Shown here: one piece after another, positions 3,461 to 63,080 of the stretch | Layout: every line of letters starts with the position of its first letter | Position numbering within the stretch: position 1 is the stretch's first letter | The notes under the pieces: model-generated | The model's input: the letters and a program-made list of their open reading frames with translations, nothing else | The model's database searches: none | Told to the model about the DNA's origin: nothing | From: Nitrospirota bacterium | GTDB taxonomy: Bacteria > Nitrospirota > UBA9217 | Direction of reading: 5' to 3' | Length of the DNA: 64,000 nucleotides | Assembly: GCA_963751455.1 (NCBI GenBank) | Contig: CAVVUN010000002.1 | Location: forward strand, 1-64,000 | Made by a program: the position numbers and the translations under genes

Positions 3461-3548
3461 TTGGACGCAGATAAAGGCGGAAAAAACAGGATTACATTTA
3501 AAAAGTATTTTTTTAATCTGCGGCCATCTGCGTAAATCTGCGGACAAA
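3461..3548. repeat. Empty CGCAGAT-type inverted-repeat shell
   Basis: TTGGACGCAGATAAAGGCGGA, AT-rich spacer, then AATCTGCGGCCATCTGCGTAAATCTGCGGACAA. Confidence 0.75.
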
Positions 3549-3561
3549 AGATTCTGTTATT

Positions 3562-3843
3562 TTACTTATCCGATTCCATCGGCCTTCCTTCGGGCATGGG
3601 ATTGACGACAATCATTCCCGGCTTCATCGGCAACGGCGGCGCCATAGTAGAATACATTGACTGGGCCGGCGTATCCGGGAGGCTTCCGTGGTCCCAATAA
3701 CGCGGAGGATCATGAACCAGGTGATGAGACCACATCCCGTAGCCCATCAAGGAAAGGCCGAAGAGAAAGAGAATTATCCATCCCACAAACTGCGGAGGTA
3801 CTTTGTATTCTTCATAGTGTTCGAGGATTTCTTTGTCGTTCAT
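3562..3843 (-). CDS. Small single-TM membrane protein in oxidase cluster
   Basis: ATG at 3843 (MNDKEI...), one hydrophobic helix, tightly packed with neighbours. Confidence 0.6.
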   Translation of the reverse strand: MNDKEILEHYEEYKVPPQFVGWIILFLFGLSLMGYGMWSHHLVHDPPRYWDHGSLPDTPAQSMYSTMAPPLPMKPGMIVVNPMPEGRPMESDK

Positions 3844-3850
3844 GGCACAC

Positions 3851-4123
3851 CTACCAGTTTGGAGGGTTCCCCGCCTTGAGAAGAGGATAGACAAAAGCCA
3901 GCAGACCCGTTCCTGCGATCGTAAGGATCAGTATCCAGGGAAAAGTCTTCTGAAACCAGATAAGAAACGACTTGAGGTCCGTTATCTCGAGCTGTGCCTC
4001 GCGTTCGACGCCCCGCATTCTCCAGATGGCGATGTAGGTCAGTGCTGTCAGCAGCACCAGGATGTCACCCAGTCCCAGGGCCAGCCAGATCCAGTGGTGA
4101 CGGTATATTTCGAGGTTGAACAT
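3851..4123 (-). CDS. Small two-TM membrane protein in oxidase cluster
   Basis: GGAG RBS, two hydrophobic helices, ends GNPPNW. Confidence 0.65.
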   Translation of the reverse strand: MFNLEIYRHHWIWLALGLGDILVLLTALTYIAIWRMRGVEREAQLEITDLKSFLIWFQKTFPWILILTIAGTGLLAFVYPLLKAGNPPNW

Positions 4124-4149
4124 AATTAACTCCGTTTAACTCCTTTTGT

Positions 4150-4274
4150 AACCACGGGTTTCGACTTTGTCGAAACACACAGATAAAGACACGTTAAATC
4201 AAATTAAAAAGATCTAAATTTTATAATCCTTATCCGTGTTCATCTGTGTGTCCGACTTGTCGGGACCTGTGGTT
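4150..4274. repeat. CACAGAT-variant inverted-repeat shell with a CGAC-TT(T)-GTCG mini-hairpin in each arm
   Basis: Left arm AACCACGGGTTTCGACTTTGTCGAAACACACAGATAAAGACACG. Reverse complement of right arm AACCACAGGTCCCGACAAGTCGGACACACAGATGAACACGGATA. Confidence 0.75.
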
Positions 4275-4445
4275 GTATTTTTATTCTTTACCTGTGGTTC
4301 TTCCGGTATTTCTGCCCACAGCGCAAGATAGCGGGCGCGCTCCTGGTCTCTAAAATGACCCGCACGGAATGCCCAGTATACGGCAAAAGCGCTGGTGATC
4401 AGGATCAACAGCGTGAAGGACAGCCAGTACAAAAAGAAGGTTCAC
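4214..4445 (-). CDS. ccoS: cbb3-type oxidase assembly protein CcoS/FixS (probable indel near start)
   Basis: TM followed by WAFRAGHFRDQERA, similar to the W...GQF.D.E motif. A GTG start overlapping the upstream stop needs a 1-nt shift in a T run. Confidence 0.7.
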
Positions 4446-5459
4446 TGCTTCTCTCCTTTCGGCATGCCAATATTGCCCCCCTCCATTTCGGGCGGCGCAT
4501 ACTCATTTTTCCATTCGGGCTCGTGCGCGGCATCGATTCCCCGGGGTTCGATGTTCCCGTCGGTATACCCTATAAAGGAAACCGCAAGGTAATTTGACAC
4601 GTCCCAGATCTTTGCCGACTCCAGGTCACGCTTGAAGTACGGCATTGCTGTCCCAGAGATGCCGTTCATGACCTGGTAATAGAGCAGACCTCCGATGTAC
4701 CGGTTCTCGATAAGGTGGCGGCGGAGCGTCGTAAAATTGAGCGGCGGCGGCATCAGGAATTTTGCGGCAGGACCCTGGCCGTCGCCGATGGAACCATGGC
4801 AGTTGATGCAGAAATCCTGGTAGATGCGCTTCCCTTTCGAGAGCGACGAAGCTGTCGCCGGATAGGGGTTCGGCATCCGTTGCCATACCTCAGGTACCTG
4901 TGCATGCAGCCATCTGGATGTTCTTGTCCACCCCGGCGCTGAACGCTGCAATGGACTGCTTTCCCCATGAATTCTGGCGGTTGACCCGCACATCCGCGTT
5001 CTTCATGCCGAGATACTGCATGAATGCGGTCAGTCTAGCGATGTCCTCGTCGCCCAGAAACTCCCAGCTCGGCATGAGCGAGACCGGGCTGGTATAGCGC
5101 GGATTTTTAAAATGGGCGCTATGCCAGTCATCCGGATGCTCGCCGCCTTCCTGCGAGAGGTCCGGACCGATGCGTTCCGTGCCGGGAAGGTACGGCTCCT
5201 GGCCGACGAAGTCGCCTGCTTCGGCAATCCGCTCGGATCCTTTATCCCAGTCATTGATACGCACGAAGAGGGAGTGGCAGTACGTGCAGCCGTTATTGAC
5301 AAACAGACGGAAACCCTCTTTTTCGGCCTGTTCCATCGGTCTCCAGATCGCGGACGGCTTTACTTCCATCGTCTGCATGGGAAGGATCACCATGATGAAG
5401 GCGGAGGCCCAGAACATGAAAATGCTGCCGATGATCAGCAGTGCGGGAGTCATCTTCAT
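4442..5459 (-). CDS. ccoO: cbb3-type oxidase subunit II fused to a second cytochrome c domain (one frameshift near 4900)
   Basis: GCTYCHS, RIGPDLS.EGG and H...P....P.S.MP in 4890..5459; second heme motif CINCH with G.SGTAMP in 4442..4993. Confidence 0.8.
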
Positions 5460-6844
5460 GGCCCATTCTCCCTTGTTACGGGCTGCGGCTCGAACGGTTC
5501 TCCCCGTTTGATGGTCATGACCAGATTAAAAAATCCGACGAAGGCGGATGCGATGATCAGAACCCCCAGTGCGGCCCTCGCCACCATGTACGGCATGATC
5601 TGCGGCAATACCCGGTAGACAACCTCTCCATTTTCCCACGCTTCGCCCTGTACAAGCCCTGCAATCGTGAGCACCACAAAAAACCCGGTTAGTCCGAACA
5701 AGACAAGGCCGAACTGAAGATTTACGAGCCGGGACGACCAGATGCGGCGCTTAAGAATAGAGGGCAGCACATGCCACATAGTGCCGAGCGCGATGAAACC
5801 CGAGAAGCCAAGGACCGCGATGTGGGAGTGGGCGATCGTCCAATTGTTCAAATGGGTGACCCTCTGCACAAAAGGCAGGGACTGGAACGGTCCCTGGATG
5901 CAGGTGAGGATATACCAGATAGTGCCTGCGGTGACAATTCTTGCGGCAGGATCATGAAGGAGTCTTCCTCCATATCCCCGGGCAGTGAGCCACAGGTTCG
6001 CGAGCGCGACAAAAACAGGCACGGTCATGGTAATCGAATTCACTACCGTTACCACTTTCAGCCAGTTCGGTATCGGGATCTGGAGGATATGGTGGCCGCC
6101 GATGTGCGTATAGAAGGCAATAAGCGTCCAGAATCCGACAAGCGACAGCGTATGCGAGTTTATTGGCGTCCGCGCCACTCTCGGAATTACATAATAGGCG
6201 GCTCCGACGGCGAGCGGCGTGAGCAGCAACCCCGGCAGGGCGTGCCCGTAGAACCAGTGAATGATAGGGTCGATGATCCCCGCGAGAGCGCCGGTTTCAG
6301 GATGCCACATCACGTTGCCGATGGGATAAAAGCCGGCTGTCCAGATGAGCATGCCTACGAAATACCATATCGAGACATACAATGCCTTTTCAGAGCGGTT
6401 AACAATGGTCATGACAATGTTTACAAGCAGAATCAGGATGGAAAGAACCAGGGTAACGTCAAAAATCCAGAGATGCTCCGCATACTCGCGTCCCTGGCTC
6501 AAGCCGAAGGGAAAAGTAAAGTACGCGCTCAACATGGTCGCGTTCCACAGTATGCAGCTCACCCATCCGAGCGGTTCCGACCAGAGAGGGGTCCGCAAGA
6601 GCGCAGGCACGTAATGCACGGCGCACCCGATCAAGGTGGTGGTGACGAAGCCGAACAGCACTGTGTCGACATGGGCCGGCCGCGCGCGGCTGAAGACCAG
6701 CCAGGGAATATTGTTAAAGAACTCGGGCGAGACCAGATTGATCGCCGAAAAAAGCCCGAATATCGTGCCTGACATGAACCAGAAGGCGCCCGTGACGATG
6801 AAGGCGAGGGCGGCGGAGTTTTGTCTTTGAAATAGGGATGGCAT
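5456..6844 (-). CDS. ccoN: cbb3-type (family C) heme-copper oxidase subunit I, divergent
   Basis: About 12 TM; R.RP.H, QGREYAE, WFYGH, FYTHIGGHH and WTIAHSH ligand motifs. Confidence 0.85.
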   Translation of the reverse strand: MPSLFQRQNSAALAFIVTGAFWFMSGTIFGLFSAINLVSPEFFNNIPWLVFSRARPAHVDTVLFGFVTTTLIGCAVHYVPALLRTPLWSEPLGWVSCILWNATMLSAYFTFPFGLSQGREYAEHLWIFDVTLVLSILILLVNIVMTIVNRSEKALYVSIWYFVGMLIWTAGFYPIGNVMWHPETGALAGIIDPIIHWFYGHALPGLLLTPLAVGAAYYVIPRVARTPINSHTLSLVGFWTLIAFYTHIGGHHILQIPIPNWLKVVTVVNSITMTVPVFVALANLWLTARGYGGRLLHDPAARIVTAGTIWYILTCIQGPFQSLPFVQRVTHLNNWTIAHSHIAVLGFSGFIALGTMWHVLPSILKRRIWSSRLVNLQFGLVLFGLTGFFVVLTIAGLVQGEAWENGEVVYRVLPQIMPYMVARAALGVLIIASAFVGFFNLVMTIKRGEPFEPQPVTRENGP

Positions 6845-7250
6845 TTAAAAAACCCCGCACTAATTTCTAATAGACCCGGACAAGCCGGAAAAAGACAAAT
6901 CCAGTTAGCCACACCCTGCATTCGCGCTTCGCACTTATAACCGCTGGGCGCAGGCGGATGAACACGTGGCCACTGCACTGTCGGAAAATCACCGTCCCCT
7001 CCGAAGGATGGGCTCGGAAAGGACACTACGGGTGCAGCAGAAAATAAAATAAACTGTATTTACAGTTGACCGCAAAATATGCCAAGAAAAGGCCGGAAAT
7101 AGCCCTGCGTTTTTTCGCGGCTAACAAATTGAGTAGATATAAACTCTATTTTATTATTTTCATCCGTGTCAATGTGTCATCCGTGGCAAACGGTATTGAT
7201 TTTTTTCCATTTTGGATGATTTCTCTTTGCAACTTGTCGCGAAAATAAAT

Positions 7251-14452: not shown

Positions 14453-14528
14453 GTGATGCCTCCTGATTGACTATGATTTGTTCATTCATATAGCTATTAT
14501 TTCTCTGTGCCCTCTGTGGCAAGATAGT

Positions 14529-29041: not shown

Positions 29042-30469
29042 CTAGGATTTTAAAATCTTCTCCGCCGCAATCTGCGCCTCATGGATGCAGTCGCCGATCC
29101 CGATGCCCTTGTAGGAGCAGCCGATGAGGTGCAGCCCCGGGTGCGCCGACAGGCTGCGGTCGATAAGCGCCATACGGTCGAGATGGCCGACCGTGTATTT
29201 CGGCATGCCTTTGAACCATCGATAGACTTTTGAGAATGCGGCGTTCGCCTTGAGACCGAGGATAGTGTCGAGTTCCTCCAGCACCATCTTTGTCATGCCC
29301 GCGTCATCCAGTTCATGGACCAGTTCCTCATGATGCCCTCCGCCTACGAATGCGCGGATCAGGACCTGGTCATCGGGCGCCCGGTAGGACCATTTATGGA
29401 ACTGTACGTGGCGGCGTTGACCCTTCTGCCCTCGACTCTCGGCACGATGAATCCGAAGCCCTTGAGAGGGACTTTCACGTCCTCCTTTCGGAATGCGATC
29501 GAAACCGTGGCCGGAAGAGGACCATTCGATTTTGTTCATCTGCTCCGCAAGAGTTTCATCGAAACCTTTTACCATTTCAGCGGCATCATATGAGGCCGTT
29601 CCGATCATGACGTGGTCTGCCTCAAGCGTCTCTCCGATTCTCAGGATGACCGCTGTAGCCCTTGTCTTTCGGTTCGATGGCTTTGACAGAAGCGCCGAGC
29701 CGGATCGAATCCTTGCCGATATAATCGGCGCAGGCCTGGGACAGCGTACTGCATGCCGTTCTTGAAGCTCATGAAATACGTCATTTTCGGTGCGCCGGGC
29801 TTCGGAGGCGGACCGCTCAGGGTGGCATGGGGCCTGCTCTTCATCGCGGCAAGCATTCCGCGGATGAGACTTCCGCTCTTCTGCTCCATCTGCACGAAGC
29901 GGGGGAAGGTTGCGAGGACGCTCATATTGTCGGGATTCGACGTATGGATGCCTGCAACGAGCGGTTCGGCGATTTTCTCGAGGCATTCCCGGCCAAGCCG
30001 GCGCGTAACGAATGAGGCGAGACTTTCATCCTCCATGAGCTTTCGCTTCGGAATGAATACCTCCATGCCCATGCGCATTTTGCCCGGCCAGGAAATGAGG
30101 CTTTGACTTTGCCATGGGCTTGAACGAGGTCGGGACCATGAGCATGACGCCTTCGGGAAGGGAATGGAGCTGTCTTGTGAGTAGATGAAGGTGCCCTTGA
30201 AATGGTCGTTCGAGGGAAGCATTTCGGGTTCGAGGCCGAGGTACTTGGCGAGATTCACGGTCCAGACCTTTTCCGGGAAGAAAACTGTCGGGTCCGCCCT
30301 CGATCAGATACTTGTCGTGTTTCTCGGTCAGGATCTTGCCGCCGATGCGTCTGTTCTTTTCGAGCAGCAGCACCTCGACCGTCTTGCCGTGTGCCTTGGC
30401 CCCGGCCTTCAGATGGACTGCGGCAGCCAGTCCGGCAATGCCGCCGCCTATGATTATTATTTTTGACAT
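29042..30469 (-). CDS. hemG: Protoporphyrinogen/coproporphyrinogen III oxidase, HemY/HemG type (many frameshifts)
   Basis: IIGGGIAGL.AA, R.GGKI.T...EGGPDSF, DESLASFV.RRLG, MP.Y.VGH and Y.GIGI.DC. Confidence 0.85.
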
Positions 30470-30483: not shown

Positions 30484-30930
30484 AGGACGCAGATTTGCGC
30501 GGATTAGCGCGGATAGTAATACGTTACTTTCTTGTATTGTTCAAGCTTTTCGTTTGAATTCAGGTTTGGCCCGAAGTTAAAGCAATACCAACTTCAATAT
30601 TGGTTGCTTTTAAATAGTTTAAAAGTTGTGCTTCATGTTCCGCTGCCAGTGTTTTGTTGCTTTAATCTCTATAATAATACGATCTTGACCAATAAATCAG
30701 CAAAATATTCTCCGACGACTCTGCCGTTATAAAATACCTGTATCTGTATTGTTGTTTTACATCGAGACCCAGCTTCTCTAGCTCAATCATAAGAGCGTTA
30801 GATAGATTTTTTCTAAAAAGCCATATCCTAAGGAATTGTAAACGATATAAAAAGCCTTAATGATCAGATCGGTAATTTTTTTATATTTGAAATCTTCGTC
30901 ATCAGCGTTATCTGCGTTTATCCGCGTCCA
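30484..30930. mobile_element. Inverted-repeat-flanked GxxExxY cassette inside the hem operon
   Basis: Left arm AGGACGCAGATTTGCGCGGATTAGCGCGGAT (30484-30514) and right arm ATCAGCGTTATCTGCGTTTATCCGCGTCCA (30901-30930) enclose one AT-rich gene. Confidence 0.6.
30524..30921 (-). pseudogene. GxxExxY protein (PD-(D/E)XK-like family), multiple single-base deletions; missed by the ORF track
   Basis: Manual translation across shifts: NADNADDEDFKYKKITDLIIKAFYIVYNSLGYGFLEKIY-NALMIELEKLGLDVKQQ-IQVFYNGRVVGEYFADLLV-DRIIIEIKA-LAAEHEAQLLNYLKATNIEVG-LNFG. Confidence 0.85.
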
Positions 30931-30933
30931 GAA

Positions 30934-31840
30934 TCATTTCGCTTTTGTCACAATATCCGCAAGCGCCTTAATCAATGAACGCGATGTGTTCAGCGATTCC
31001 AGGCCGCTCGAAGTCAGTCCGAGGTCGGCGGCATGCTCCCGGTGGACGATGTCGATGTCGTACAGCGTCTCCATGTGATCGCAGGTGAATCCGACGGGCA
31101 CCTCGAGCACATAATTCAGGTATCTTCCTCGGCAGCCGATTCCAGGACACGCTCGACCTCCGGCTCGATCCAGGGCTCGGTTGCGCGTGCCCCCTTGCTC
31201 TGCCACGCGATCCGCCATTCATGTAAACCGATGCCTTCGGCAACCAGCTTTACGGTTTCTTCAACCTGTTTCTTGTACGGGTCTCCTGCCGTCGATATAC
31301 CGGAGCGGGAATGCTGTGGCTGGTGAAAATAACGACTGAATATCGCCTCTGTGTTTCGGCCGGAAGCGTTTCAGCGCCGTCCCGCACCTTTTCCTGCCAC
31401 GCGTTGATGAAATAGCGGATTGTCGTGCCAGCTCGGCAATGAAGGATTTGCTGATCGTCCCGTCATCCAGCTGACTCGAAAGCTTTCCGGTAGGCGCCTG
31501 TTGTGACGATTGTTTCAAAAGGCGACATCGAAAGGCCGATGACGCGGCCGGCGCCTTCACGTACCGCCTTTTCAAACGCCACGCCGACCGAAGGAGAAGA
31601 ATATCGGAAGCCCTCGTATACCCTGTAGCCGTTCCCGAGTTCCCGGGCAAGCGCTTCTGCCTGTGCTTTAACCAGTTCCGGCAGCGGCGACTTTCCGCCG
31701 ATCAATTTATAGCGTTCAATGACGGCTTGAACGACCGGCTGCGGGTGCGGGCCGGCCCATAAAGGCGGCCATGAACGGCCCGACTTCATCCAGCGATCTG
31801 GGTCCGCCCAGGGCGATGAGTATAATTGCGGTATGGTCAT
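30934..31840 (-). CDS. hemH: Ferrochelatase / coproporphyrin ferrochelatase (many frameshifts)
   Basis: LGGP.SL..V..F, ERY..IGG.SPL, GFRYS.P, W.E, P.GF.CDH.ETLYDID and SLN. Confidence 0.85.
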
Positions 31841-31943
31841 TGAAAATCATCAAGATCGCAGAGATCGCAGAAATGCAGGATGCAAGATATAAGGACGATA
31901 TATTTGTTTCGAATCTGATGTTCATCGTAGATCGTGGCTCAGG

Positions 31944-37884: not shown

Positions 37885-37946
37885 GGATGGACACGGATAA
37901 TTCATATATAACAAATTTATCTGTTATCTGTGTTCAGCTGTGTTTC
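37885..37946. repeat. Degenerate CACGGAT/CACAGAT inverted-repeat shell between pgk and tpiA
   Basis: GGACACGGATAA ... TTATCTGTTATCTGTGTTCAGCTGTGTT. Confidence 0.55.
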
Positions 37947-39149: not shown

Positions 39150-39164
39150 GGTGCACCTCAAGGT

Positions 39165-39281
39165 GAAATTCGAAATCCTAATATCGAAATCCTAAACAAA
39201 TTCAAATATCGAAATTCAAAAATTTTTTTGATTTCGAATTTTGATATTATTTCGGATTTCGTGCTTCGAATTTCGAATTTG
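39165..39281. repeat. Heptamer (TTCGAAA) inverted-repeat shell between gap and pgk
   Basis: GAAATTCGAAATCCTAATATCGAAATCCTAAACAAATTC ... ATTTCGGATTTCGTGCTTCGAATTTCGAATTT. Confidence 0.85.
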
Positions 39282-39287
39282 CTGTCT

Positions 39288-40453
<1,166 letters not shown>

Positions 40454-44710: not shown

Positions 44711-47188
44711 TTATTTTGCCTTGCTCACGGCTTGCGCGGCATAGGACAGCAGATCACCCAGCGCGGCGAAGAGCGTTTTTATCCTCTCCGTTTCCGGCAG
44801 CGGTATCTTTAAAAACGCCGAACCTGTCGTTTCGTCTTTGCCGATCATGGCTTGCAGGCGCTTTTCGGCCGGCTCGCCGGGCCGCGCCATCATATCCCCG
44901 AGACCGGCTAGGAACCGCGCGCCGCTCTGGAAAAGGTCGTTCAGCGAATCGCGTGTTTCTCCGTGGCCGTTTCCACCGGATCGTGCTGCTTTGGATCGTC
45001 CGGCACTCACCGCTTCTTGGCGCATTTCTTTTTCCGCCAGTTCATCTTCATGCCGTTTCTGCCGCTCGGCAGCCGGGTCCGGCTGGGGCATGTTTTGCGT
45101 CATCGTCTCGACGGTCTTCATCAGCGTATTGAGCTTCGACTCTCCGACCATGACCGTGTCCAGCCCTCCCTCGTCCAGCGCGCCGGCGAAGACCGACTTC
45201 TTGAATTTGAGCAGTTCAAGAATACGTTCTTCGATTGAGCCGGAGGTTACGAAGTTGATGACCTGTACAGGTTTCTTCTGGCCCATGCGGTGGACTCTGC
45301 CGATGCGCTGTTCGAGCACTGCGGGGTTCCAGGGAATGTCCACGTTGATCACGACCGAACCCGATTGCAGGTTGAGGCCGACTCCTCCGGCGTCGGTCGA
45401 AAGGAAGACGCTGCATTTCGGGTCTTCCCGGAAGTCCGTGATCAAATCCCTCCGCTTCTTCGACGGAATCCTGCCGTGCAGGTGAGTGTATCCGATTCCA
45501 TTTCGTTTCAGGATTTCCTCGACCAGCTCGGCCATGCGAAGCCACTGAGTGAAAACAACGACCTTTTCGCCGCCCTCAATGACCAGTTCCCGGAGAATGA
45601 TTTCGAGTTCCTCGATTTTCGGGCCGTGAATGTTTTTCTTGTCCACGAGATACGTATTGTCCGAAACCATGCGCATCATGTTGAGCGCCATCATGAGCCG
45701 CTTTTGGTCGGCATCGCTCAGGAATTTGTAGCGCCTCCACTTGGCCACGAGCCGGGCCACAAGCTCCCGGTACTCGTCGTGGATCGCGAACTGTTCCCGT
45801 GTCATGGGCACGAAGAAGTTCTTGTCTGTGCGCCCGGGGAGCTGCCGGAGGACTTCGTGTTTCATCCGCCGGATCAGGACGTCCTTGAGCGACTCCCGGA
45901 TGGACCGCAAATGCCGGTAGCCCTTGACCTTGCCGTCATTGTCAACGATGCGATGGTTGTGCACAAAACGGTAAAGAGGCCCGAGGTGGAGCCGGTCGAT
46001 GAACTCCATGATCGAATGCAGCTCTTCAATCCTGTTTTCGAGCGGCGTTCCGGTGAGCACCACGGCGAAGGTCGATTCAAGCCGCTTGACGGATTTCGCC
46101 GTCCGGGTGTTCCAGTTCTTGATCCGTTGCGCCTCGTCGAGGATGATCAGATCGGGAGACCACGCCTTGATATGGTCCAAGTCGCGGGATACGACCTCGT
46201 AGTTGATGACCTTGTAGAACGTTTCAGAACGGTACAGTCGCGCCCGCTCGGCGTTCATGCCCTCGACGACGGAGACGCTTTTGCCAGTGAATTTTTCGAT
46301 CTCTGTCCGCCATTGGTGCTTGAGCGATGTGGGCGTGACAATCAGCACTTTTTCGATATTGAACAGCCTGTGCATCAACTCCGAGGCGGCAAGAGCCTGA
46401 ATGGTTTTTCCGAGGCCCATGTCGTCGCCGATCAGGCAGCGGCCCGCCCGAACCGCGAACAGCGCGCCTTCTTTCTGATAGGGGTAAAGTTCGGTTTTCA
46501 GGAGACTGTGAAACGCCGAGCTCTGGATTCCGTGTTTCAGTACATCTCCGACGATTCGCATTCGGTGTTCCTCGTCCTGATGCTCCGCGACAAAGGCCAT
46601 GACATCATCATAGCAGCGCACTTCGTGACCGTCGAAGCGCCTGGCCGCGTCGGCAAATGCCAGGAAATCGGACATGCGCTCAGGTCTTAATACGCCCTTC
46701 CCGTCGAAATATTTCCGCGCGAGGTGGCTCAGTTCCGCGGGCGCAGCCACGCCGGGTTTGAACCGTATCTCCTTCTTCAAGCCATAGTGCAGGAACACCT
46801 CCGAATACTGCGGGGTGAAGCCCGCACGGAACGCCTTTTTCGCGCCCGGTTTCTTCTCCAGTTTTGCGAGAGTGAATTCGATATGCTTACAGGTGCCGAG
46901 GTTGTTGATGCTGAAATCCGGGCAGGAACAGTAATTCTCGCCCGCATCCTTGCCGCGGATGGCGAGCCTGTACGTTTTTCCCGAGACCGGATTTGTGAGC
47001 GAAAACTCGGAAAAGATCGGATGGTCGCCGTTGTTCCGGAGAATGAAACTCTGCTGCTCGCCGAACTGCTTTCTGAGCGCGCGCTGCCAGTCCTCAAGCG
47101 AGAGGTCGTCGGGCTTGTGCATGCGCGGGACCTTCAGTTTGATCGGTTTTGACTTCGTCCGTGAAGCGCGGCTGTTTATCATTATCAT
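44711..47188 (-). CDS. SWIM zinc finger / SNF2-family helicase
   Basis: CSCPDF...CKH, DDMGLGKT, LDEAQRIKN, LTGTPLEN, GGVGLNLQ and WNP....QR..R.HR.GQ. Confidence 0.9.
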   Translation of the reverse strand: MIMINSRASRTKSKPIKLKVPRMHKPDDLSLEDWQRALRKQFGEQQSFILRNNGDHPIFSEFSLTNPVSGKTYRLAIRGKDAGENYCSCPDFSINNLGTCKHIEFTLAKLEKKPGAKKAFRAGFTPQYSEVFLHYGLKKEIRFKPGVAAPAELSHLARKYFDGKGVLRPERMSDFLAFADAARRFDGHEVRCYDDVMAFVAEHQDEEHRMRIVGDVLKHGIQSSAFHSLLKTELYPYQKEGALFAVRAGRCLIGDDMGLGKTIQALAASELMHRLFNIEKVLIVTPTSLKHQWRTEIEKFTGKSVSVVEGMNAERARLYRSETFYKVINYEVVSRDLDHIKAWSPDLIILDEAQRIKNWNTRTAKSVKRLESTFAVVLTGTPLENRIEELHSIMEFIDRLHLGPLYRFVHNHRIVDNDGKVKGYRHLRSIRESLKDVLIRRMKHEVLRQLPGRTDKNFFVPMTREQFAIHDEYRELVARLVAKWRRYKFLSDADQKRLMMALNMMRMVSDNTYLVDKKNIHGPKIEELEIILRELVIEGGEKVVVFTQWLRMAELVEEILKRNGIGYTHLHGRIPSKKRRDLITDFREDPKCSVFLSTDAGGVGLNLQSGSVVINVDIPWNPAVLEQRIGRVHRMGQKKPVQVINFVTSGSIEERILELLKFKKSVFAGALDEGGLDTVMVGESKLNTLMKTVETMTQNMPQPDPAAERQKRHEDELAEKEMRQEAVSAGRSKAARSGGNGHGETRDSLNDLFQSGARFLAGLGDMMARPGEPAEKRLQAMIGKDETTGSAFLKIPLPETERIKTLFAALGDLLSYAAQAVSKAK

Positions 47189-47343: not shown

Positions 47344-50292
47344 ATGAGTGGAGAGGACACGTCCGCGAGCGAACAGCAGGAAAAGTATCTGGCTTTACTG
47401 GCCGAGAACGGCAGATTGAGGGAAGAAATTAAGGTGCTGAAAGCCCGACTGGGCGATGAGGTGTCCTTCGTTTTGCCGGATTCGATTTCCAGGAATGCGA
47501 ACGGAGCGGATGCGGCAAGTTTCAGGCAGACAGCGGAGACGCTCTTCCCTCCGGAGATCAACAGCAGGTCGGACGTCGGCGACAAGATCAGGTTGTTTAT
47601 GTCGCTGTTCAAGGGGCGGGACGATGTTTACGCCAGGCGTTGGGAAAACAAGAAGAAAGGGACCTCCGGTTATTCACCCTGCTGCTTTAATGAATGGGAG
47701 AGGGGATTTTGCTCGAAACCAAAGGGCAAGTGTTCGGATTGCCGCCATAAAGCATACGCGCCCTTTGATGAAAAGGCGGTTGAAGATCATTTACGGGGGA
47801 ACATCGTCGCCGGCGTATACCCGATGCTCCCTGATGAAACGTGCCGGTTTCTTGCGATTGACCTGGATGACGGGGACTGGCGCAAAGACGCGGCGGCTTT
47901 GCGGGAGACGGCGTCCGAATACGCCATACCTCTTGCGGTCGAGCGCTCCCGCTCGGGCAATGGCGCCCATGCCTGGATCTTTTTTGAGGCGCCGCTGGCC
48001 GCCGTACTGGCAAGGAAATTCGGCACGGCCCTGCTTACCCGAACCATGAGCAAGCGGCATGAGATTACGTTCAAATCGTATGACAGATTTTTCCCCAATC
48101 AGGACACTATGCCCACGGGCGGATTTGGAAACCTGATTGCGATTCCTTTGCAAAAAGAGGCCAGGACCGCCCGAAACAGTGAATTCATCGATGAGTATTT
48201 TGAACCCTATGCCGATCAGTGGACGTATCTGGGCGCAATCCGAAAACTCTCCGAGAAAGAGATAGGTTCGCTCACGGCAACGCTGTGTCACGGAAATGAA
48301 CTCGGCGTTCTGAAAATCGACGAAGAAGATCCGCAAAAACCCTGGGAAACGGTCGCAGTCGGATTGTCGGCGTCGGATTTCCCGCGCTCGATCGAGATCG
48401 TGAAAGCGAATATGTTGTATATCCCCAAAGCGGGGATATCCCAACGGGGATTGAACCGGATCAAACGACTGGCGGCCTTTAGAAACCCGGAGTACTACAA
48501 GGCCCAGGCGATGCGGTTCCCGACGTATGACAAACCGCGAGTTATCTGTTGCGCTGATGTGACCGCTGAATATCTCTGTTTGCCGAGGGGGTGCCAGGAG
48601 GAACTGAAGGAGTTGTTGTCCGAACAGGGTTTGGAAATGACCTGGGTAGACAAGACCAATTGCGGCAAGAGGATTGATGTCGAATTCAAGGGAGTTCTGC
48701 GGGAAGAACAGATGTTTGCCCTGGAAAAACTCCTCGTCCATGATACCGGGCTGCTCGCCGGCACAACCGCCTTCGGAAAGACAGTGGTCGCGATCGGGCT
48801 TATCGCCGAAAGAAAAGTCAATACTCTTATGATTGTGAATCGGGCCGGCCTGATCAGCCAATGGCGGAAACGGTTGCAGGAATTCCTGACCATCAATGAA
48901 ACAGCGCCGCCGGAGACGGACACGAAAGGAAAAAGGCGCAAAAAAGGGAAGAGTATCATTGGTCAAATGGGACAAGGGAAGCAGGCGCTGAGCGGCATCA
49001 TCGATATCGCCCTTATGCAGTCATTGAACAGGATGGGCGAGGTCAGGGAGTGCGTGAAAAATTATGGGATGATCATTGTCGATGAATGCCATCATGTGGC
49101 GGCCTTCAGCTTTGAGACGATCCTGAAAAACGCAAGCGCCCGATATGTGTATGGTCTGACCGCCACGCCCGCCAGAAAAGATGGACACCATCCGATAATA
49201 TTCATGCAGTGCGGACCGGTTCGGTTCCGTGATGATGCCAGGAAGCAAGCGGAAAAAAGGCCGTTTGATCATTTCGTGATCCCGAGATTCACTCCGTTCC
49301 GGCCCCCGCTGGACAGCGAAGAGAAGGAGCTTTCGATCCAGGCTCTTTATGCCGAGGTCGCGGTCAATGAATTACGGAATCAAATCATCATCGATGACGT
49401 GGTAAAGAGCCATGAGAAGGGGCGAAACTGCCTTGTATTGACGGAACGGACCGCGCATGTGGACTATCTCGCCGGCAAGCTGAGAGAAAAAATCCCGGAC
49501 GCTCTCTCTCTTGTGGGGAGCATGGGAGCAAAGGAGACAGGCGAGGTCCTGAACCGAATCGCCGCTACTCCGGCAGACCGTCAATTGACCCTGATCGCGA
49601 CCGGGAGGTACATCGGAGAGGGCTTTGACGAACCACGTCTGGATACGCTCTTTCTGACCATGCCGATCTCATGGAAAGGGACGCTGCAACAGTATGCGGG
49701 CCGGCTGCACCGTCTTTTTGAACACAAGAATGAGGTGCAAATCTATGATTACGTGGATATTCATGTAAGGATGCTGGAGAAGATGTATCAGAGACGCCTG
49801 AACGGCTATGCTGCAATCGGGTATAAAATTAAGGCTGGAACGATCGAAACAGATTCGATCGATATCATCTTCGACAAGAGCAGCTTCCTGCCGGTCTACG
49901 GCAATGATATCAACGCGGCGAAACGGGAGGTCGTGATCGTAAGCCCCTTCGTCACCCGGAGGCGCACCCTCCGCATGTTGCCGCTGCTCGAAGGGGCGAT
50001 GAAAAATGGAGTGAGAACGATCGTCGTGACCAGACGGCCGGAAGATTTCAAGGAAAAGGACGCCGCCGCATTGCGGGAAACCCTGAATTTGCTCAACAAC
50101 GCCGGAGTGAGCGTCGTATTCCGTTCAAATATCCACCAGAAATTCGCCGTGATCGACCAAAGGATCGTCTGGTACGGCAGTATCAATCTGATGAGCTACG
50201 GCGAAGCGGAAGAAAGCATAATGCGCCTCGAAAGCCCGAATATTGCAAATGAACTGATCAAAGTCGCGGAGCGGACCACGGGGAGTTGTTGA
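47344..50292 (+). CDS. TOTE-type archaeo-eukaryotic primase domain + SF2 (DEAD/DEAH) helicase + C-terminal PLD-like nuclease domain
   Basis: F.GR.DVYA.RW, AIDLD, ERSRSGNGAH.W and GNLIA.PLQ; TAFGKT, DECHH, GLTATP.R.DG and EGFD.P.LD; SPF...HQKFAVID....WYGS.N. Confidence 0.85.
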   Translation: MSGEDTSASEQQEKYLALLAENGRLREEIKVLKARLGDEVSFVLPDSISRNANGADAASFRQTAETLFPPEINSRSDVGDKIRLFMSLFKGRDDVYARRWENKKKGTSGYSPCCFNEWERGFCSKPKGKCSDCRHKAYAPFDEKAVEDHLRGNIVAGVYPMLPDETCRFLAIDLDDGDWRKDAAALRETASEYAIPLAVERSRSGNGAHAWIFFEAPLAAVLARKFGTALLTRTMSKRHEITFKSYDRFFPNQDTMPTGGFGNLIAIPLQKEARTARNSEFIDEYFEPYADQWTYLGAIRKLSEKEIGSLTATLCHGNELGVLKIDEEDPQKPWETVAVGLSASDFPRSIEIVKANMLYIPKAGISQRGLNRIKRLAAFRNPEYYKAQAMRFPTYDKPRVICCADVTAEYLCLPRGCQEELKELLSEQGLEMTWVDKTNCGKRIDVEFKGVLREEQMFALEKLLVHDTGLLAGTTAFGKTVVAIGLIAERKVNTLMIVNRAGLISQWRKRLQEFLTINETAPPETDTKGKRRKKGKSIIGQMGQGKQALSGIIDIALMQSLNRMGEVRECVKNYGMIIVDECHHVAAFSFETILKNASARYVYGLTATPARKDGHHPIIFMQCGPVRFRDDARKQAEKRPFDHFVIPRFTPFRPPLDSEEKELSIQALYAEVAVNELRNQIIIDDVVKSHEKGRNCLVLTERTAHVDYLAGKLREKIPDALSLVGSMGAKETGEVLNRIAATPADRQLTLIATGRYIGEGFDEPRLDTLFLTMPISWKGTLQQYAGRLHRLFEHKNEVQIYDYVDIHVRMLEKMYQRRLNGYAAIGYKIKAGTIETDSIDIIFDKSSFLPVYGNDINAAKREVVIVSPFVTRRRTLRMLPLLEGAMKNGVRTIVVTRRPEDFKEKDAAALRETLNLLNNAGVSVVFRSNIHQKFAVIDQRIVWYGSINLMSYGEAEESIMRLESPNIANELIKVAERTTGSC

Positions 50293-50768: not shown

Positions 50769-50870
50769 GTGCATTGCTTCCAAGGACTTCACCAGGTCTT
50801 TGGAAGTGGCGGGTTTTGAGTAACACAAACAGTCAAGTTACCTTGAGTAACATTGCATAGGATCAGATTT

Positions 50871-52442
<1,572 letters not shown>

Positions 52443-52517
52443 GAATCAGAGATTGCTTCGGTGACTCTCATCTTAGGTCGTTCGCCAGCACCTATTTAGT
52501 TTTGAAGGACCATGAGT

Positions 52518-52588
52518 AAGCACAAATTCGAAGTGTTAATTTCGAAATCCGAATCTTGGGATTTAGAGTTTAGAGCTTTCGGATTTAG
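52518..52588. repeat. Heptamer inverted-repeat shell in the 16S-tRNA spacer
   Basis: CACAAATTCGAAGTGTTAATTTCGAAATCCGAAT ... GGATTTAGAGTTTAGAGCTTTCGGATTT. Confidence 0.6.
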
Positions 52589-52655
52589 CCGCTCAGGGCT
52601 ATAGGCATGGGCTCGGAGCTTTACCCCCGGGAAAAGTCCTGAGCCTGTTAAAAAC

Positions 52656-52732
<77 letters not shown>

Positions 52733-52796
52733 ACTAATAACAAATGGCTAAATCGGATTTCAACAATTCTAAATTTAAACCGTTCTGAATTTATCA

Positions 52797-52872
52797 GGGG
52801 CTGTAGCTCAGCTGGGAGAGCACCTGCTTTGCAAGCAGGGGGTCAGCGGTTCGATCCCGCTCAGCTCCACCA
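52797..52872 (+). tRNA. tRNA-Ala(TGC)
   Basis: GGGGCTGTAGCTCAGCTGGGAGAGC...TTTGCAA...GTTCGATC...CTCCACCA. Confidence 0.97.
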
Positions 52873-53044
52873 TAATTATAATTCAATATTCAAGATTTAA
52901 TATTCACGAGGAATATTGAATGTTGAGTTTTGAATTCCCGAGCGAAGTTGCTCGGGATTGTTCTTTGACAACTGAATAGCAAGAGTACAAGTAAAGCTGA
53001 GGCAAACTCAAGAAAAAGCCAAATTTGCCAGAAGCAAATTTGGT

Positions 53045-56045
<3,001 letters not shown>

Positions 56046-56167
56046 CTAATTTTTTGCTTCTGACAAATTCGGCTTTTAAAGTACTCTTGCATATTCAGTG
56101 TTGAAGTAAAACGCAGAGCGCATGCGCAAAGCGGTTTAACTTTAAGTAGTTCTTGTAATTAAAGGTT

Positions 56168-56286
<119 letters not shown>

Positions 56287-57808: not shown

Positions 57809-57819
57809 CCGTATGGTCC

Positions 57820-58738: not shown

Positions 58739-60091
58739 TCATTCTCTTGCTAAAAACTCCTGAACAAACAGCGGTTCCGATTCGATCACATCACGGAATA
58801 TCGCGACTATCCGGGGAGCGAACTGCTTGCCGGAAAATCGGGTAAGCTCCCGGAGAGCTTCTTCATGAGAAAACGGCTTTTTGTAGGGACGCGCCGAGGT
58901 CATGGCGTCAAAGGCATCAGCCACAGCTATTATTGCCGCGTGAAGCGGAATGTCTTCTCCTCGAAGCCCGTCGGGATAGCCTTCTCCGTTGAACCACTCA
59001 TGGTGATGTCTCACGCCCGGGATGTATTTCTGAAGTGAAGAGGCCCTGCTCAGAATAGCCGCACCGAATTCGCTATGGTTTGCGATTTCATCGCGTTCCA
59101 GCGGGTCCAGAGGACCTTCCTTCAGCAGAAGGTAATCGGGCATCTTTAGCTTTCCGACATCATGGAAAAGACTTGCCAATTCCAGATCTTCAAGCTCTGA
59201 GCCGGCAAGCCCCATTGCTTTACCGATTTTTAATGATAATTTTGAGACCCGCGTTGAATGGCCGAGAGTATACGGATCGCGTGCGTCGATTGCCGCGGCA
59301 AGCACTTTTACTGTCGAGCGATAGGCTTCTTCCAGCTCTCTTGCAGAATCCGTAAGCCTCGTCTGCTGCTGTGTAATCAATTCCGCCATCTGGTTGAAGC
59401 TGGCCGTCAAATGTCCGAGTTCATCGTGCGCGTAAATTCTCAGCCGAGAACTTTTGCCTCTTTTGAGTTCCCGTACGCCGAGGGAAAGTTCTTTGATCGG
59501 CCGGGTCACAAAGGAGGACAGCACAATAATACAACCAATGCCGAGCATTATAACGATCACGAATCCCGCAATGATTCTTTTGCGCGTTTCCGCCCTCGCC
59601 CTGAGCAAGGCCGACTTATTCATGCCGATGACGAATAAGCCTACCTGCTTTTTATTGAAGATCATCGGCGTAACAATTTCAAAACGATCTGCTTCATTCT
59701 TTACTTCATAGATATGAGTCCCGTCCCCTGCTTTCTGGATAGTTTTGCCCGGGGACGGAGTAAATCTACCGCCGGTATTTGTCATATTGCTATGCGCAAT
59801 TATGTTCATGCCGGAATCCGTGACTATCACGTACTCCACATCCTCATTTGCCGCCTTGACCTTCGAAACAATATTGATCATTCCGAGTAAATCACCCGAA
59901 AGAATGCTATACGGGGCCAAAGCTGCCGTGCTCTTGCTGAGCGACTCTGCACGCTTTATGACTTCGTCCATAATATACCGGTTCACGGTATTTACCGTCA
60001 GGACAGTGAAAATAGATGCAGTGACCAAAAGCAGAATGGTAATGAAGAGAGCAATTTTAAATTTAAGTTTACCGAAAATATGTTTTATCAT
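58739..60091 (-). CDS. Membrane sensor with HAMP and HD-GYP cyclic-dinucleotide phosphodiesterase domains
   Basis: Two TMs, DELG.L..SFN.M, DPYT.GHS.RV, HDVGK and HHEWFNG.GYPDGL. Confidence 0.9.
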   Translation of the reverse strand: MIKHIFGKLKFKIALFITILLLVTASIFTVLTVNTVNRYIMDEVIKRAESLSKSTAALAPYSILSGDLLGMINIVSKVKAANEDVEYVIVTDSGMNIIAHSNMTNTGGRFTPSPGKTIQKAGDGTHIYEVKNEADRFEIVTPMIFNKKQVGLFVIGMNKSALLRARAETRKRIIAGFVIVIMLGIGCIIVLSSFVTRPIKELSLGVRELKRGKSSRLRIYAHDELGHLTASFNQMAELITQQQTRLTDSARELEEAYRSTVKVLAAAIDARDPYTLGHSTRVSKLSLKIGKAMGLAGSELEDLELASLFHDVGKLKMPDYLLLKEGPLDPLERDEIANHSEFGAAILSRASSLQKYIPGVRHHHEWFNGEGYPDGLRGEDIPLHAAIIAVADAFDAMTSARPYKKPFSHEEALRELTRFSGKQFAPRIVAIFRDVIESEPLFVQEFLARE

Positions 60092-60346
60092 TATAACTTT
60101 TTTATCACAAGATTCCGATACAGTCAAATTGGTTTTATAGAAGACAAGCCGTAATGTGTTATTTTAGCGCTAAAATGAAAGTTAATGCTATTTTCTTTTG
60201 CGATATAACGAAACGCAGGAAAAATCGGGCAAATCATAAATTCGCTGTAAAAGCTGAATTTATAGGCTTGATAATTACGCAAAAATATGCTGTAATAACC
60301 CACACTGGGTAATAATTGTGAAGCGCGAAACGAAGAGGGAGGGGCG

Positions 60347-60784
60347 ATGGGAACAGGAAACCAGGTTGTTGCGCGGTTCAATGACGGGAGAGTGGTCAAA
60401 GGGTACACCAATGGGTTCTCGTCGGAGTCGAAAACTATTATGGTTCAGGAAGTAAAGAGCGGCAATGTCGTTGATATTCCCGTTGCCGAGCTCAAGGCCC
60501 TTTATTTCATTAAGTCTTTTGACGGCGACGAGGAACGCCGTGAGAGAAAGGCTTTCGGCATTAATGCGAATACCGGCCGTAAAGTTTATATCAAGTTTAA
60601 CGACAGGGAGTCATTGGTGGGTTTTATCGAAGGGGAAATTCCATGGTCTAAAGGGTTTTTTCTTTCGAAGGAGCGAAGTAAAGCAAATGGTTTTTTCGTG
60701 GTTCCTGCCGACAGTAACTCTAACAATGACAAAGTGTTTGTTGTCGGGAGTTCGATAAAGGATGTTACCGTAATGGTGAAATAG
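60347..60784 (+). CDS. Conserved hypothetical protein (DUF6982-like)
   Basis: VVARF.DGRV.KG, LKAL.F.K.F.G and V...F.D.E...G...GFF..PAD...NN; GAGGGG RBS. Confidence 0.65.
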   Translation: MGTGNQVVARFNDGRVVKGYTNGFSSESKTIMVQEVKSGNVVDIPVAELKALYFIKSFDGDEERRERKAFGINANTGRKVYIKFNDRESLVGFIEGEIPWSKGFFLSKERSKANGFFVVPADSNSNNDKVFVVGSSIKDVTVMVK

Positions 60785-60863
60785 AGGAGCTGATTTCCGA
60801 ACGTGGAATCAATCCCCGATCCGAAGAGCAACAAGAAAGCAAAAAGGTTGTGTCCGCGACTTT

Positions 60864-61355
60864 TCAGCCGCTGGTCCCGGTTGGCTCACTCCGCGGAGTC
60901 CGCTGGAGAGGTTGGTCTTGAGAAGGGGCTTTTTGAGACTGCTGAGTTGAACCGGGCTCAGTTTCGGAAGCGGGAGGAACCGGAGCCTGTTTGTCCGTTT
61001 CAACAGGTTCCACGGGTTTATACCGGCTCGGCGTGAAATTGGGGTTCAACTCATATGCTTCATTGAAGCTTTCCATCGACTTTTTCCTGCTTTCGGCGTC
61101 ATCATTCTTCCTGCCTTTCATATAGTAAGCGTATCCCAGATAATAGTAGCCTTCGGCGTCCGGATTGATAGAAACAGCTTCCTCCAACTCGGAAATTGCA
61201 GGCTCATATTTTTTTTCTTTCAGAAGATCTATCCCTTTCTCGATATGCTTTGTCGAGGCTTCCGTATCAAAGAGGGGTTCTTGAGCGGACGCAGACTGAA
61301 TCCCGGCGGTAATTATCGCTATGAAAACCAGCGTGACCATTATGCTGCGCATCAT
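60864..61355 (-). CDS. Secreted TPR protein with Pro/Gln-rich tail
   Basis: AGGAGG RBS, signal peptide, A...LEEAV.INP.AE.YYYLG.AY TPR pattern. Confidence 0.75.
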   Translation of the reverse strand: MMRSIMVTLVFIAIITAGIQSASAQEPLFDTEASTKHIEKGIDLLKEKKYEPAISELEEAVSINPDAEGYYYLGYAYYMKGRKNDDAESRKKSMESFNEAYELNPNFTPSRYKPVEPVETDKQAPVPPASETEPGSTQQSQKAPSQDQPLQRTPRSEPTGTSG

Positions 61356-61544
61356 CTCCTCCTTAAACGCCTTAAATTACTGTAACAATATCACAGCCAT
61401 TCGCAGGAAGTCAACAATATGTGATCCTTACTTTTTTTGCCTTGACAGGATTCCGCTCCGTGCAGTACTATAAAGCACTTTTTTTACCGGGCGATAAAGC
61501 CTGTACTGGACAATTTATCAGCTGAGATTTTGAGAGGAGTCAAT

Positions 61545-61748
61545 ATGCCGTTCTATGAATATGTCTGCGAGGCGTGCGGCAAGGATTTCGTGCTCTTGCA
61601 GTCCATGACTCATAAAGTGGAAGAAACAGTCTGTCCCTATTGCAGCGAGAAGAAGGCAAAAAAAATGCTTTCCAGGTTCTCATCGCCCGGAGCTGACCAT
61701 TCGAGCTGCGGAACAAGCGGGGCTTCCTGGGGCGGCGGGGGCGGCTGA
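61545..61748 (+). CDS. FmdB family zinc ribbon protein
   Basis: MP.YEY.C..CG..F...CP.C; GAGGAG RBS; TTGACA promoter-like site at 61442. Confidence 0.85.
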   Translation: MPFYEYVCEACGKDFVLLQSMTHKVEETVCPYCSEKKAKKMLSRFSSPGADHSSCGTSGASWGGGGG

Positions 61749-61786
61749 AGCATTTAAAAAAACCGCCGTGAGCGGGGAGAAAAGCC

Positions 61787-61819
61787 AGCCTGAGAGTCCT
61801 TCGATTCTCAGGCTTTTTT
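61787..61819 (+). terminator. Intrinsic terminator
   Basis: AGCCTGAGA ... TCTCAGGCT followed by TTTTT. Confidence 0.65.
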
Positions 61820-61956
61820 GTGCAACATCAAAAGTAAGCGCCAAATAACTATTGTACGCAGCAAGCACTGGTAAACACTGGGTGCGAGTACTTGGTTCCG
61901 GTCTCGCCTGGTACGTAAACGCCGGGCGCGGACCGAGATATTTTTTTGTATAAATT

Positions 61957-62877
61957 ATGGAATCCGCCATTTCTCTGAAAACCTTTCTTAATCCGCGGTA
62001 CTGGTACGCATGGCCGGTGCTGGGGTCCATGATGCTGCTGAGCTGGATGCCGCGCTCCGTCCTGTGGGTGCTGGGGAGTGCGATCGGCTGGCTCTTCTAC
62101 TGGCTGCCCTCCCCTGCGTGCCGTATCGCGGCCAGGAACATCGAGCTTTGCTTTCAAGATCGTGCTCCGAGTGAGCGGCGCAGCATGGTACAAGCCCATT
62201 TTCGACTTTGCGGCTTTGCCGTTCTCTGTCTCGGCGTCGGCTGGTGGGCGCCGAAATGGCGCATTAAGCGTTTCATCAAGCTCCACAACTCCCACTATGT
62301 GCACGACGCATATGCACGAGGCAAGAACGTGATACTGCTTGCGCCGCATTTTATCGCGCTGGACATCGGCGGAATACGCACATCGATCGAGAAGACTGTC
62401 GTAACCCTGTACCGGAAAGCTAGAAATCCGCTTATCGAATATATGTTTCAAAGACGCACGCGATTTGGCGCAGTTACTATAGAGCGCTTGGCAAGCCTCA
62501 AGCCGATCATTCGGCATATCCGGGAGGGCATGCCGTTTTACTATCTACCCGATCAGGACATGGGGGAGCGCGCAAGCGTGTTCGTTCCTTTCTTCGGAAT
62601 ACCGACGGCGACCGTGATGGCTCTCAGCCGGATCGCTCAGATCACGAACGCCGAGGTCGTTCCCTGTATTACCCGCCTCATGCCCAAAGGGCGGGGGATC
62701 GAAGTCACATTGCATCCCGCGCTGGAAAATTTCCCGACTGACGACCCTGAGGCCGATGCCCGGCGGATGAATGAGGAAATCGAGAAATGGGTGCGCGAAA
62801 TGCCCGAACAATACATGTGGTCCTACCGCCGTTTCAAGACCAGGCCGAACAACGAGCCGTCCCTGTACGGGAAATAG
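61957..62877 (+). CDS. lpxL: Lipid A biosynthesis acyltransferase, LpxL/HtrB family
   Basis: A.RNIELCF, PHF...D, LPDQD, VPFFG and PEQY.W..RRFKTRP. Confidence 0.85.
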   Translation: MESAISLKTFLNPRYWYAWPVLGSMMLLSWMPRSVLWVLGSAIGWLFYWLPSPACRIAARNIELCFQDRAPSERRSMVQAHFRLCGFAVLCLGVGWWAPKWRIKRFIKLHNSHYVHDAYARGKNVILLAPHFIALDIGGIRTSIEKTVVTLYRKARNPLIEYMFQRRTRFGAVTIERLASLKPIIRHIREGMPFYYLPDQDMGERASVFVPFFGIPTATVMALSRIAQITNAEVVPCITRLMPKGRGIEVTLHPALENFPTDDPEADARRMNEEIEKWVREMPEQYMWSYRRFKTRPNNEPSLYGK

Positions 62878-62933
62878 TTGGGATTGCCCGGCAGAGTCCG
62901 GATGATAAAACGGACAAATAAATCTAAAAGGAA

Positions 62934-63080
62934 TTGGGACGCGGAAAAATCGGGAAACGCTGATAAGGCAGCAAAGCATCGCCTGACAAGACTGGATTCT
63001 GCCTTCGCAGGAATGACGTTTTTGAGTAAATTAGACTCTCGTATTTTAATCCGTGTCATCTGCGTTTATCTGCGTCCAAA
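62934..63080. repeat. CGCAGAT-type inverted-repeat shell with a nested GATTC.GCCTTCGC.GGAATGAC hairpin
   Basis: TTGGGACGCGGA...AACGCTGATAA, nested CTGGATTCTGCCTTCGCAGGAATGAC (62992-63017), right arm ATCTGCGTTTATCTGCGTCCAAA. Confidence 0.75.

Follow-up and report, generated by a model that had tools for sequence, protein, structure and literature searches.

The described systems that come closest to the element reported here share some of its features and differ in others. In the accessible parts of the sources (PMC3116915; PMC3733652; bioRxiv 10.1101/2021.07.10.451892), doublets of repetitive extragenic palindromes (REPs), called REPINs, are extragenic inverted doublets of about 100 bp with a variable spacer, present in hundreds per genome, and the gene of their cognate enzyme, the REP-associated tyrosine transposase (RAYT), is flanked by the same repeats. 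T4-like free-standing homing endonucleases (seg, mob) are, in the available text of PMC2988022, intergenic nuclease genes between conserved genes, often promoterless and co-oriented, which spread by break repair, invade and decay, and the MITEs (miniature transposable elements with inverted repeats) of DDE-type insertion sequences (IS) appear in the accessible portion of PMC3184786 as short non-coding units with inverted ends. Here we analyse the first 64 kb of contig C2 (CAVVUN010000002.1; 64,000 nt, hereafter the window) in the 5.7-Mb assembly of a Nitrospirota bacterium (GCA_963751455.1; G000), in which runs of a 7-base word face each other as inverted repeats between genes. We call such a run an arm and a facing pair without a gene a shell; one pair, between hemH and hemG, brackets a gene of the GxxExxY family, and we refer to this unit as a cassette. 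The reading that we favour, at a probability of roughly 0.52, is that the shells are gene-less forms of a selfish, arm-bounded GxxExxY cassette, whose predicted nuclease would cut its own arms, with repair then copying the unit into spacers.

The arms are the ends of the cassette unit, and the arm word changes with the clade of the GxxExxY protein. By eye, all eight GxxExxY loci of G000 are bracketed by inverted tandem words, the word varying between loci. An earlier note on the window had named a lack of arm enrichment next to GxxExxY genes, together with a lack of spacer polymorphism among relatives, as the outcome that would refute its proposal of a mobile or intervening element, and the enrichment turned out to be pronounced: of 114 loci collected, 4 were dropped for short flanks, and among the 110 that were scored, 93 have at least two words on both sides, compared to 8 of 408 shifted control windows. 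For the loci from named genomes, which span many phyla and include one archaeon, the figure is 64 of 77; the 80 named-genome loci were the best query matches and hence do not sample the family at random. Cultured carriers include Herpetosiphon llansteffanensis (L048) and Stieleria tagensis (L091). In a quick phylogeny of 149 intact proteins (122 columns, with many of the forks weak; 25 of 174 were left out as broken or missed by the filter), the word label changes 29 times, against 60.2 after shuffling, and none of 200 shuffles was as low. Where related cassettes occupy unrelated sites (30 pairs, 39 ends), identity is 0.87 at position -1 and 0.92 at position -2, and then 0.36 at -3 and 0.30 further out; homology stops about 2 nt outside the outer word.

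The cassette usually follows its upstream gene closely, the first word lying a median of 15 nt behind the stop codon and within 30 nt in 56 of 79 loci, and among the 106 cases that are clear, 97 have this gene on the strand of the cassette (49 more are unclear). At one locus with CGCAAAG arms (G000:C2:422946-423293, minus strand) the 5' arm extends over the final codons of the upstream gene, so that the C-terminus of this gene's product is encoded by the arm. Across 24 family genomes, tandem arm matches rise with the GxxExxY gene count (Spearman 0.79, kin not being independent), with a median of 274 in the 19 genomes that have the gene and 17 in the five that do not; reversed-pattern controls are near zero for the GAT word. 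These genomes contain up to nine GxxExxY matches each, and 94 family loci fall in 51 upstream-gene clusters, 39 of them singletons. One type of nuo operon has, in different genomes, cassettes of different clades in four different spacers (L141, L008, L136 and L022).

Arms without a gene are widespread. A pattern scan for tandem CRCRGAT words and their reverse complement recovered inverted arms at all six paired places listed for the window by the earlier note, and the reported match between the arms at 30910-30930 and 63058-63078, 20 of 21 nt, is exact. In the whole assembly, 248 left and 262 right tandem arms sum to 510, compared to 27, 16 and 18 in three shuffles, and left-then-right pairs less than 150 nt apart number 117, against 3 in the right-then-left order. 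Shells are extragenic, with 2 of 125 lying within open reading frames (ORFs). The observation that window arms lie between co-oriented genes is correct for all eight places, and genome-wide the excess is slight: 65 of 83 shells outside MITEs, versus 2295 of 3288 spacers (70%; p = 0.095). Ten of these 83 shells lie between convergent genes, which is no enrichment, and a terminator role for shells was rejected on this ground. Rfam, at gathering score across the window, matched rRNA and tRNA only and left the arms unmatched. Compared to shuffled sequence, folding reaches z values of -4.8 to -5.7 for the shells at 4150 and 40365, and is weak (-1.5 to -2.3) for those at 3461, 37885 and 62934, the left arms of which are degenerate. 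The interiors of most free shells are unique. Since small shell subfamilies, one including the shell at 40365, have common interiors at unrelated sites, free shells have likely been copied as units.

The fold and the conserved residues of the GxxExxY protein point to a nuclease activity of the Cas4/RecB type. Its structure model has a predicted local distance difference test score (pLDDT) of 95, and the best Foldseek match of this predicted model is Cas4 SSO0001 (E 5.6e-5, template modelling (TM) score 0.63). PF13366 PDDEXK_3 is the only profile match of the flanked gene, a family whose function is listed as unknown in the accessible part of a survey (PMC3424549). The motifs E, D, ExK and QxxxY are kept, the last being described as a motif of RecB/Cas4 nucleases in the available part of PMC8610317. 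While the counts of G, E, Y, E and K are partly fixed by our selection filter, the Q and Y of QxxxY are free of it, and are present in 147 and 143 of 149 proteins. An alignment of 20 sequences contains no conserved iron-sulphur (Fe-S) cysteines, and matches in the ESM Atlas are GxxExxY clusters only. Because the protein, at about 120 amino acids, is without an extra DNA-binding domain, reading words at a pitch of 8-10 nt would need an oligomer.

The youngest gene-less copies are passengers of IS66- and IS1380-type MITEs. A first carrier family of 166-168 bp, with ends beginning GTAAC, has an 8-bp duplication at 35 of 52 end pairs, or 42 allowing one mismatch (against 1.2), and an IS66 transposase element in G000 (C9:161390-163453) has similar ends and an 8-bp duplication. 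In the second family, whose members are 164-176 bp long, a 5-bp duplication occurs at 68 of 78 end pairs (against 5.4), and the ends resemble those of a 1.6-kb DDE_Tnp_1_4 element (C3:259081-260704), which we take to be of the IS1380 type. These families enclose 103 of 352 GAT arms and almost none of the other words, leaving outside 249 GAT arms, 73 of 73 GAG arms and 166 of 168 AAG arms; neither carrier end encloses any of the eight window places. The earlier idea of shells as MITE-like derivatives is not borne out in the strict sense: 103 shells have no excess of 3-9-nt direct repeats beside the arms, and the duplications belong to the IS66- and IS1380-type ends around some of them. An apparent TA at the outer end was rejected as a duplication, since only one word type has it and it belongs to the inverted repeat, and C2:305392-307257, a candidate for an arm-ended IS1380-like element, turned out to be a MITE that carries a shell and into whose loop another MITE and a separate IS have inserted. 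The GTAAC-ended family (for example C1:204792-204959) wraps several kinds of palindromic repeat, and genes interrupted by its copies include one for a four-helix bundle (C2:320776) and one for a Y1 transposase (C12:266191). In the second family (for example C1:17949-18112), three independent types are made up of shell arms that directly adjoin the IS ends.

Orthologous spacers differ in whether they carry the gene, a shell or nothing, both between the window and its collinear copy on contig C12 and at hemH-hemG, as the earlier note's proposal implied. hemH is upstream in 46 of 56 hemG loci, including both G000 copies and three metagenome contigs, one of them a twin of G004. Eleven of the 46 spacers hold a full-length gene, one a fragment and 12 at least two words without a gene, six are at most 35 nt long, and the other 16 include several with decayed arms. 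In G001, 34 codons are left between the arms, and this internal-deletion remnant bears out that gene-less shells can arise from a cassette; the 29-nt spacer of G055 reads as if the two outer ends had been fused. Hosts with the gene do not group together on the hemG tree but are scattered, and among the three metagenome contigs recovered there was no strain-level pair of filled and empty spacers. Genes at the same site are under purifying selection (median non-synonymous proportion, pN, 0.16; synonymous, pS, 0.83; 52 pairs), yet of the 94 copies in the family 17 are either broken or short, some perhaps through assembly error. Eight cassettes directly behind one gene, presumably umuD/LexA-like judging by sequence likeness, belong to three clades with two words, and a single clade is rejected by the approximately unbiased test (p-AU 1.7e-120). 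Cluster U6 was dropped as a single site with three clades, its members sitting in three neighbouring nuo spacers. In sister hosts, hemH-hemG cassettes are 64-72% identical, compared to 88-96% for hemG; of the 39 ORFs compared between the window and C12, none is more diverged at fourfold sites than GxxExxY (0.58 versus a median of 0.29), and cassette divergence exceeds that of the flanks in all seven closest host pairs, one of which comes from U6 and may not share a site. The divergence at hemH-hemG fits replacement, with rapid evolution of an AT-rich gene as the alternative.

Our best reading of the cassette is a REPIN-like or homing-like selfish element. In this model, the predicted Cas4/RecB-type nuclease would recognise its cognate 7-base word in DNA and cut it at an extruded or paired arm, and a copy of the arm-bounded unit would then be placed in operon spacers by host recombination repair, leaving no target duplication. 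The cassette may also re-invade spacers that already hold a shell, in a homing-like cycle of invasion, decay and replacement. Its decay, through frameshifts and through internal deletions, is seen in the data, as is the further spread of shells by IS MITEs; movement, cutting and word binding are steps that we infer. A number of observations weigh against this picture. The top VIA-align matches, the BpuSI nuclease domain and SSO0001, have middling scores (Z 8.8 and 8.1), and Cas4/RecB-fold enzymes are mostly not sequence-specific. Shared ancestry alone could cluster word and protein on a tree; three genomes that are 91-98% complete (G015, G029 and G038) have many arms and no GxxExxY gene that we could find, and word by word the link between gene and arm abundance is weak (p = 0.065, 0.093 and 0.010). 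Shell interiors are variable, 46 of 125 shells having a unique interior and flanks, and every near-identical young shell family found sits inside IS-derived ends, none being free. No clean pair of filled and empty sites with a defined insertion point was found: for 44 of 203 shells the joined flanks match elsewhere, and all of these cases trace to deletions or MITE nesting. The excess divergence rests on 17-46 sites per pair, with two other pairs showing the opposite; AT-rich genes saturate higher than GC-biased flanks, and in another duplicated block 3 of 26 ordinary genes are as diverged. Finally, single origin is not rejected for five other clusters, hemH-hemG included, and the window and C12 cassettes may likewise be sisters, a grouping that is not rejected either (p-AU 0.21).

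One could instead imagine that the arms act in RNA. Arms of the same locus co-vary, with 295 matches at variable positions compared to 209 +/- 8 for arms of different loci with the same word, and the spacer lengths between words agree within a locus in 79 of 82 cases, versus 48; the two arms pair or convert each other, and shared clade history may add to this. Such complementarity would be expected of an RNA intervening element, in which the arms pair in the operon mRNA and loop out the cargo, to be processed like the intervening sequences of 23S rRNA, or stabilise the message. The location of the units right behind stop codons, in the sense of the upstream gene, and the base-for-base conservation of the arms of the 40365 shell on C12 are compatible with this too. 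On the sense strand, however, G.U and A.C mismatches are equally frequent (21:20 in cassettes, 44:49 in shells and 271:260 in genome shells), unlike what is expected for a selected mRNA stem, and we therefore read the arms as a DNA-level structure or putative binding site. Spacer bases between the words of empty shells pair no more than chance (12 versus 13.1), and shells are not enriched between convergent genes. The looping of cargo out of the mRNA, suggested in the earlier note, thus gains no support from strand asymmetry, and we give an RNA element little credence.

The gene could also be domesticated and immobile, useful to its host in repair or defence and inherited vertically, with the arms serving as operator or translation-control stem and the shells being deletion remnants spread by IS MITEs and chance recombination. 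Long residence at fixed spacers under purifying selection would follow naturally, as would the near absence of GxxExxY from plasmids (7 of 72,556 records) and its absence from a phage collection (0 of 50,697 records; one query each), the confinement of young high-copy shell families to MITEs, and the 23 of 135 loci that have no candidate start codon other than one in or before the arm. We nevertheless find it unlikely in view of the multiple matches per genome, the many upstream-gene clusters, the broken copies, the related cassettes that end at their arms at unrelated sites, and the majority of arms outside both MITE families. If GxxExxY were instead the cargo of a unit moved by another enzyme, either HUH/RAYT-like or an IS transposase acting in trans, the word would hardly be expected to change with the GxxExxY clade; window shells and cassettes moreover lack IS ends and duplications, and among the larger shells seen in the G000 listing no other gene is packaged directly between arms. 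This explanation can draw on 33 Y1_Tnp matches in the genome, on the IS66- and IS1380-type systems, which are active and do mobilise shells, and on PF13366 having no known mobilising activity (its function is listed as unknown in PMC3424549), and yet we consider it improbable. As for chance low-complexity sequence or an assembly artefact, many single-base errors in the window relative to C12 and a contamination of 5.4% could raise such a suspicion, but the 20-fold arm excess over shuffles, the same design in the 24 family genomes and in many phyla, and the association with GxxExxY loci reject it, and its probability is negligible.

The features of the window are collected in the table below. 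The GxxExxY gene, previously taken to be open, is assembled as six frame pieces spanning 30879 to 30544, with five frame changes and a TIGR04256 match in pieces only; broken as assembled, the window copy does not demonstrate an autonomous cassette. hemH and hemG likewise have many single-base indels relative to the intact collinear copy on C12, and assembly error, likely in the form of long-read consensus errors, is the likeliest cause of the frameshifts in all three genes. As to the N-terminus NADNAD, said to be encoded by the arm itself, the start codon does lie within the arm in intact same-site relatives, but the window frame has no upstream ATG, GTG or TTG. Similarly, of the two arms described as lone, the one at 14500-14522 has no partner that we could find and differs in its word, while the one at 7161-7190 has an interrupted partner. 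Positions 1-52 kb of C12 align with 2.3-56 kb of the window at 76-95% identity (blocks 2285-55934 and C12:1-51732; 16S 99.0%), and this block either comes from a relative present in the bin or reflects an old duplication; C10/C15 and C7/C1 form other long collinear blocks in G000. Three shells are common to the window and C12.

Table. Arms, shells and host genes of the window, with the state of the collinear C12 copy where available
Feature	Position	Strand	Remarks
Gene-less shell	3461..3548		left arm degenerate; also on collinear C12 copy
Gene-less shell	4150..4274		each arm interrupted by a tiny hairpin (4163, 4252); also on C12
Old shell	6905..7190		left arm ~6905-6966, split by 43-nt insert; right arm 7161-7190; C12 spacer holds a shell of another word
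Lone right arm, CACAGAG word	14500..14522		complete CGCAGAT shell at the matching C12 gene junction
hemG (protoporphyrinogen oxidase), downstream host gene	29042..30469	-	frameshifted as assembled
Cassette 3' arm	30485..30514	-	words CGCAGAT, CGCGGAT, CGCGGAT (read on +); ends ~15 nt before hemG start
GxxExxY gene body (TIGR04256, PF13366)	30527..30900	-	AT-rich, six frame pieces; intact counterpart G000:C12:21566-21958, with CACGGA/CGCGGA arms
Cassette 5' arm	30901..30930	-	starts a few nt past hemH stop; in frame with N-terminus NADNAD
hemH (ferrochelatase), upstream host gene	30934..31850	-	frameshifted as assembled
Gene-less shell, pgk-tpi spacer	37885..37946		absent on C12, where a different repeat is present
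Gene-less shell, DUF1015-gap spacer	40365..40453		arms identical on C12
Gene-less shell, spacer of lpxL and lipoate-ligase-like gene	62934..63080		nested half palindrome at 62994

The half palindrome nested in the last shell (62994-63018) is of a CGTC type. The tiny hairpin or 43-nt inserts (at 4163, 4252 and ~6913-6955) split arms at matching positions, and comparable inserts occur elsewhere in G000 and in L011; we take them to recall the small dispersed repeats of cyanobacteria. The gap-pgk spacer (39161-39288) has another tandem inverted repeat, of CGAAAT words, which C12 shares, and a degenerate tandem word pair lies immediately upstream of hemH (31857-31872), where no partner was seen. 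A complete rRNA operon with two tRNAs occupies 50870-56285. Between tyrS and this operon are a gene for an SNF2-like helicase (44711-47188) and a divergent gene for a primase-polymerase/helicase fusion (47344-50292), both without a match in the C12 copy, and this segment is possibly a defence or mobile island. Elsewhere in G000, two repeats with 165 and about 87 copies on one strand resemble CRISPR arrays.

The pairing of GxxExxY genes with arms is undescribed in the literature that was searched, with subscription papers and supplements largely outside that search, and the mention of 'GxxExxY' examined there was incidental. The pairing gives PF13366 a candidate substrate. The family is very large, as an estimated 22,000 or so stretches of a species-level genome collection match one pattern, and protein clades paired with different 7-base words offer a natural set for specificity swaps. 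Should the nuclease move its arms, a second enzyme chemistry would have arrived at the lifestyle of REPIN-RAYT systems, and the family would be one of 120-aa sequence-reading nucleases; a large share of the intergenic repeats found in poorly studied phyla would also be explained. Going further, one could speculate about a new class of mobile DNA, in which a minimal Cas4-fold nuclease, programmable by evolution, reads a tandem 7-base word and mobilises the units that such words bound, needing no transposase and leaving no target duplication, and in which hundreds of its own empty shells, partly seeded by IS MITEs, serve as homing landing pads across bacterial phyla; this wider proposal we regard as tentative and rather doubtful.

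Set beside Cas4/RecB nucleases (SSO0001, PDB 4ic1; the accessible part of PMC8610317), the GxxExxY protein has the same core fold, the E...D...ExK residues and QxxxY, but is only about 120 aa long, without conserved Fe-S cysteines and without cas context in the loci examined. Shells differ from DDE-IS MITEs in having neither a target duplication nor a transposase with matching ends, features present only in the two carrier families. The resemblance to homing endonucleases lies in the presence or absence of GxxExxY among relatives between conserved genes, and for the cassette their mode of spread is proposed only; the cassette differs in being chromosomal and not found in the phage collection, in belonging to another nuclease family, in having cognate inverted arms at its ends and gene-less copies that number in the hundreds, and in lacking a known target within a flanking gene. 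With REPIN-RAYT systems, to the extent that the available text of the three sources describes them, the element shares nested clusters and an enzyme that is scarce on plasmids and resides at fixed chromosomal sites. The predicted PD-(D/E)XK fold of its enzyme contrasts with the HUH/Y1 tyrosine transposase of RAYTs, its runs of non-palindromic 7-mers at 8-10-nt pitch with the palindromic REP, and its many sites, multiple copies (eight loci in G000) and apparent replacement with the single-copy, non-jumping RAYT. By analogy, the cassette may work like REPIN-RAYT systems and free-standing homing endonucleases; on the features tested, it belongs neither to REPIN-RAYTs nor to MITEs.

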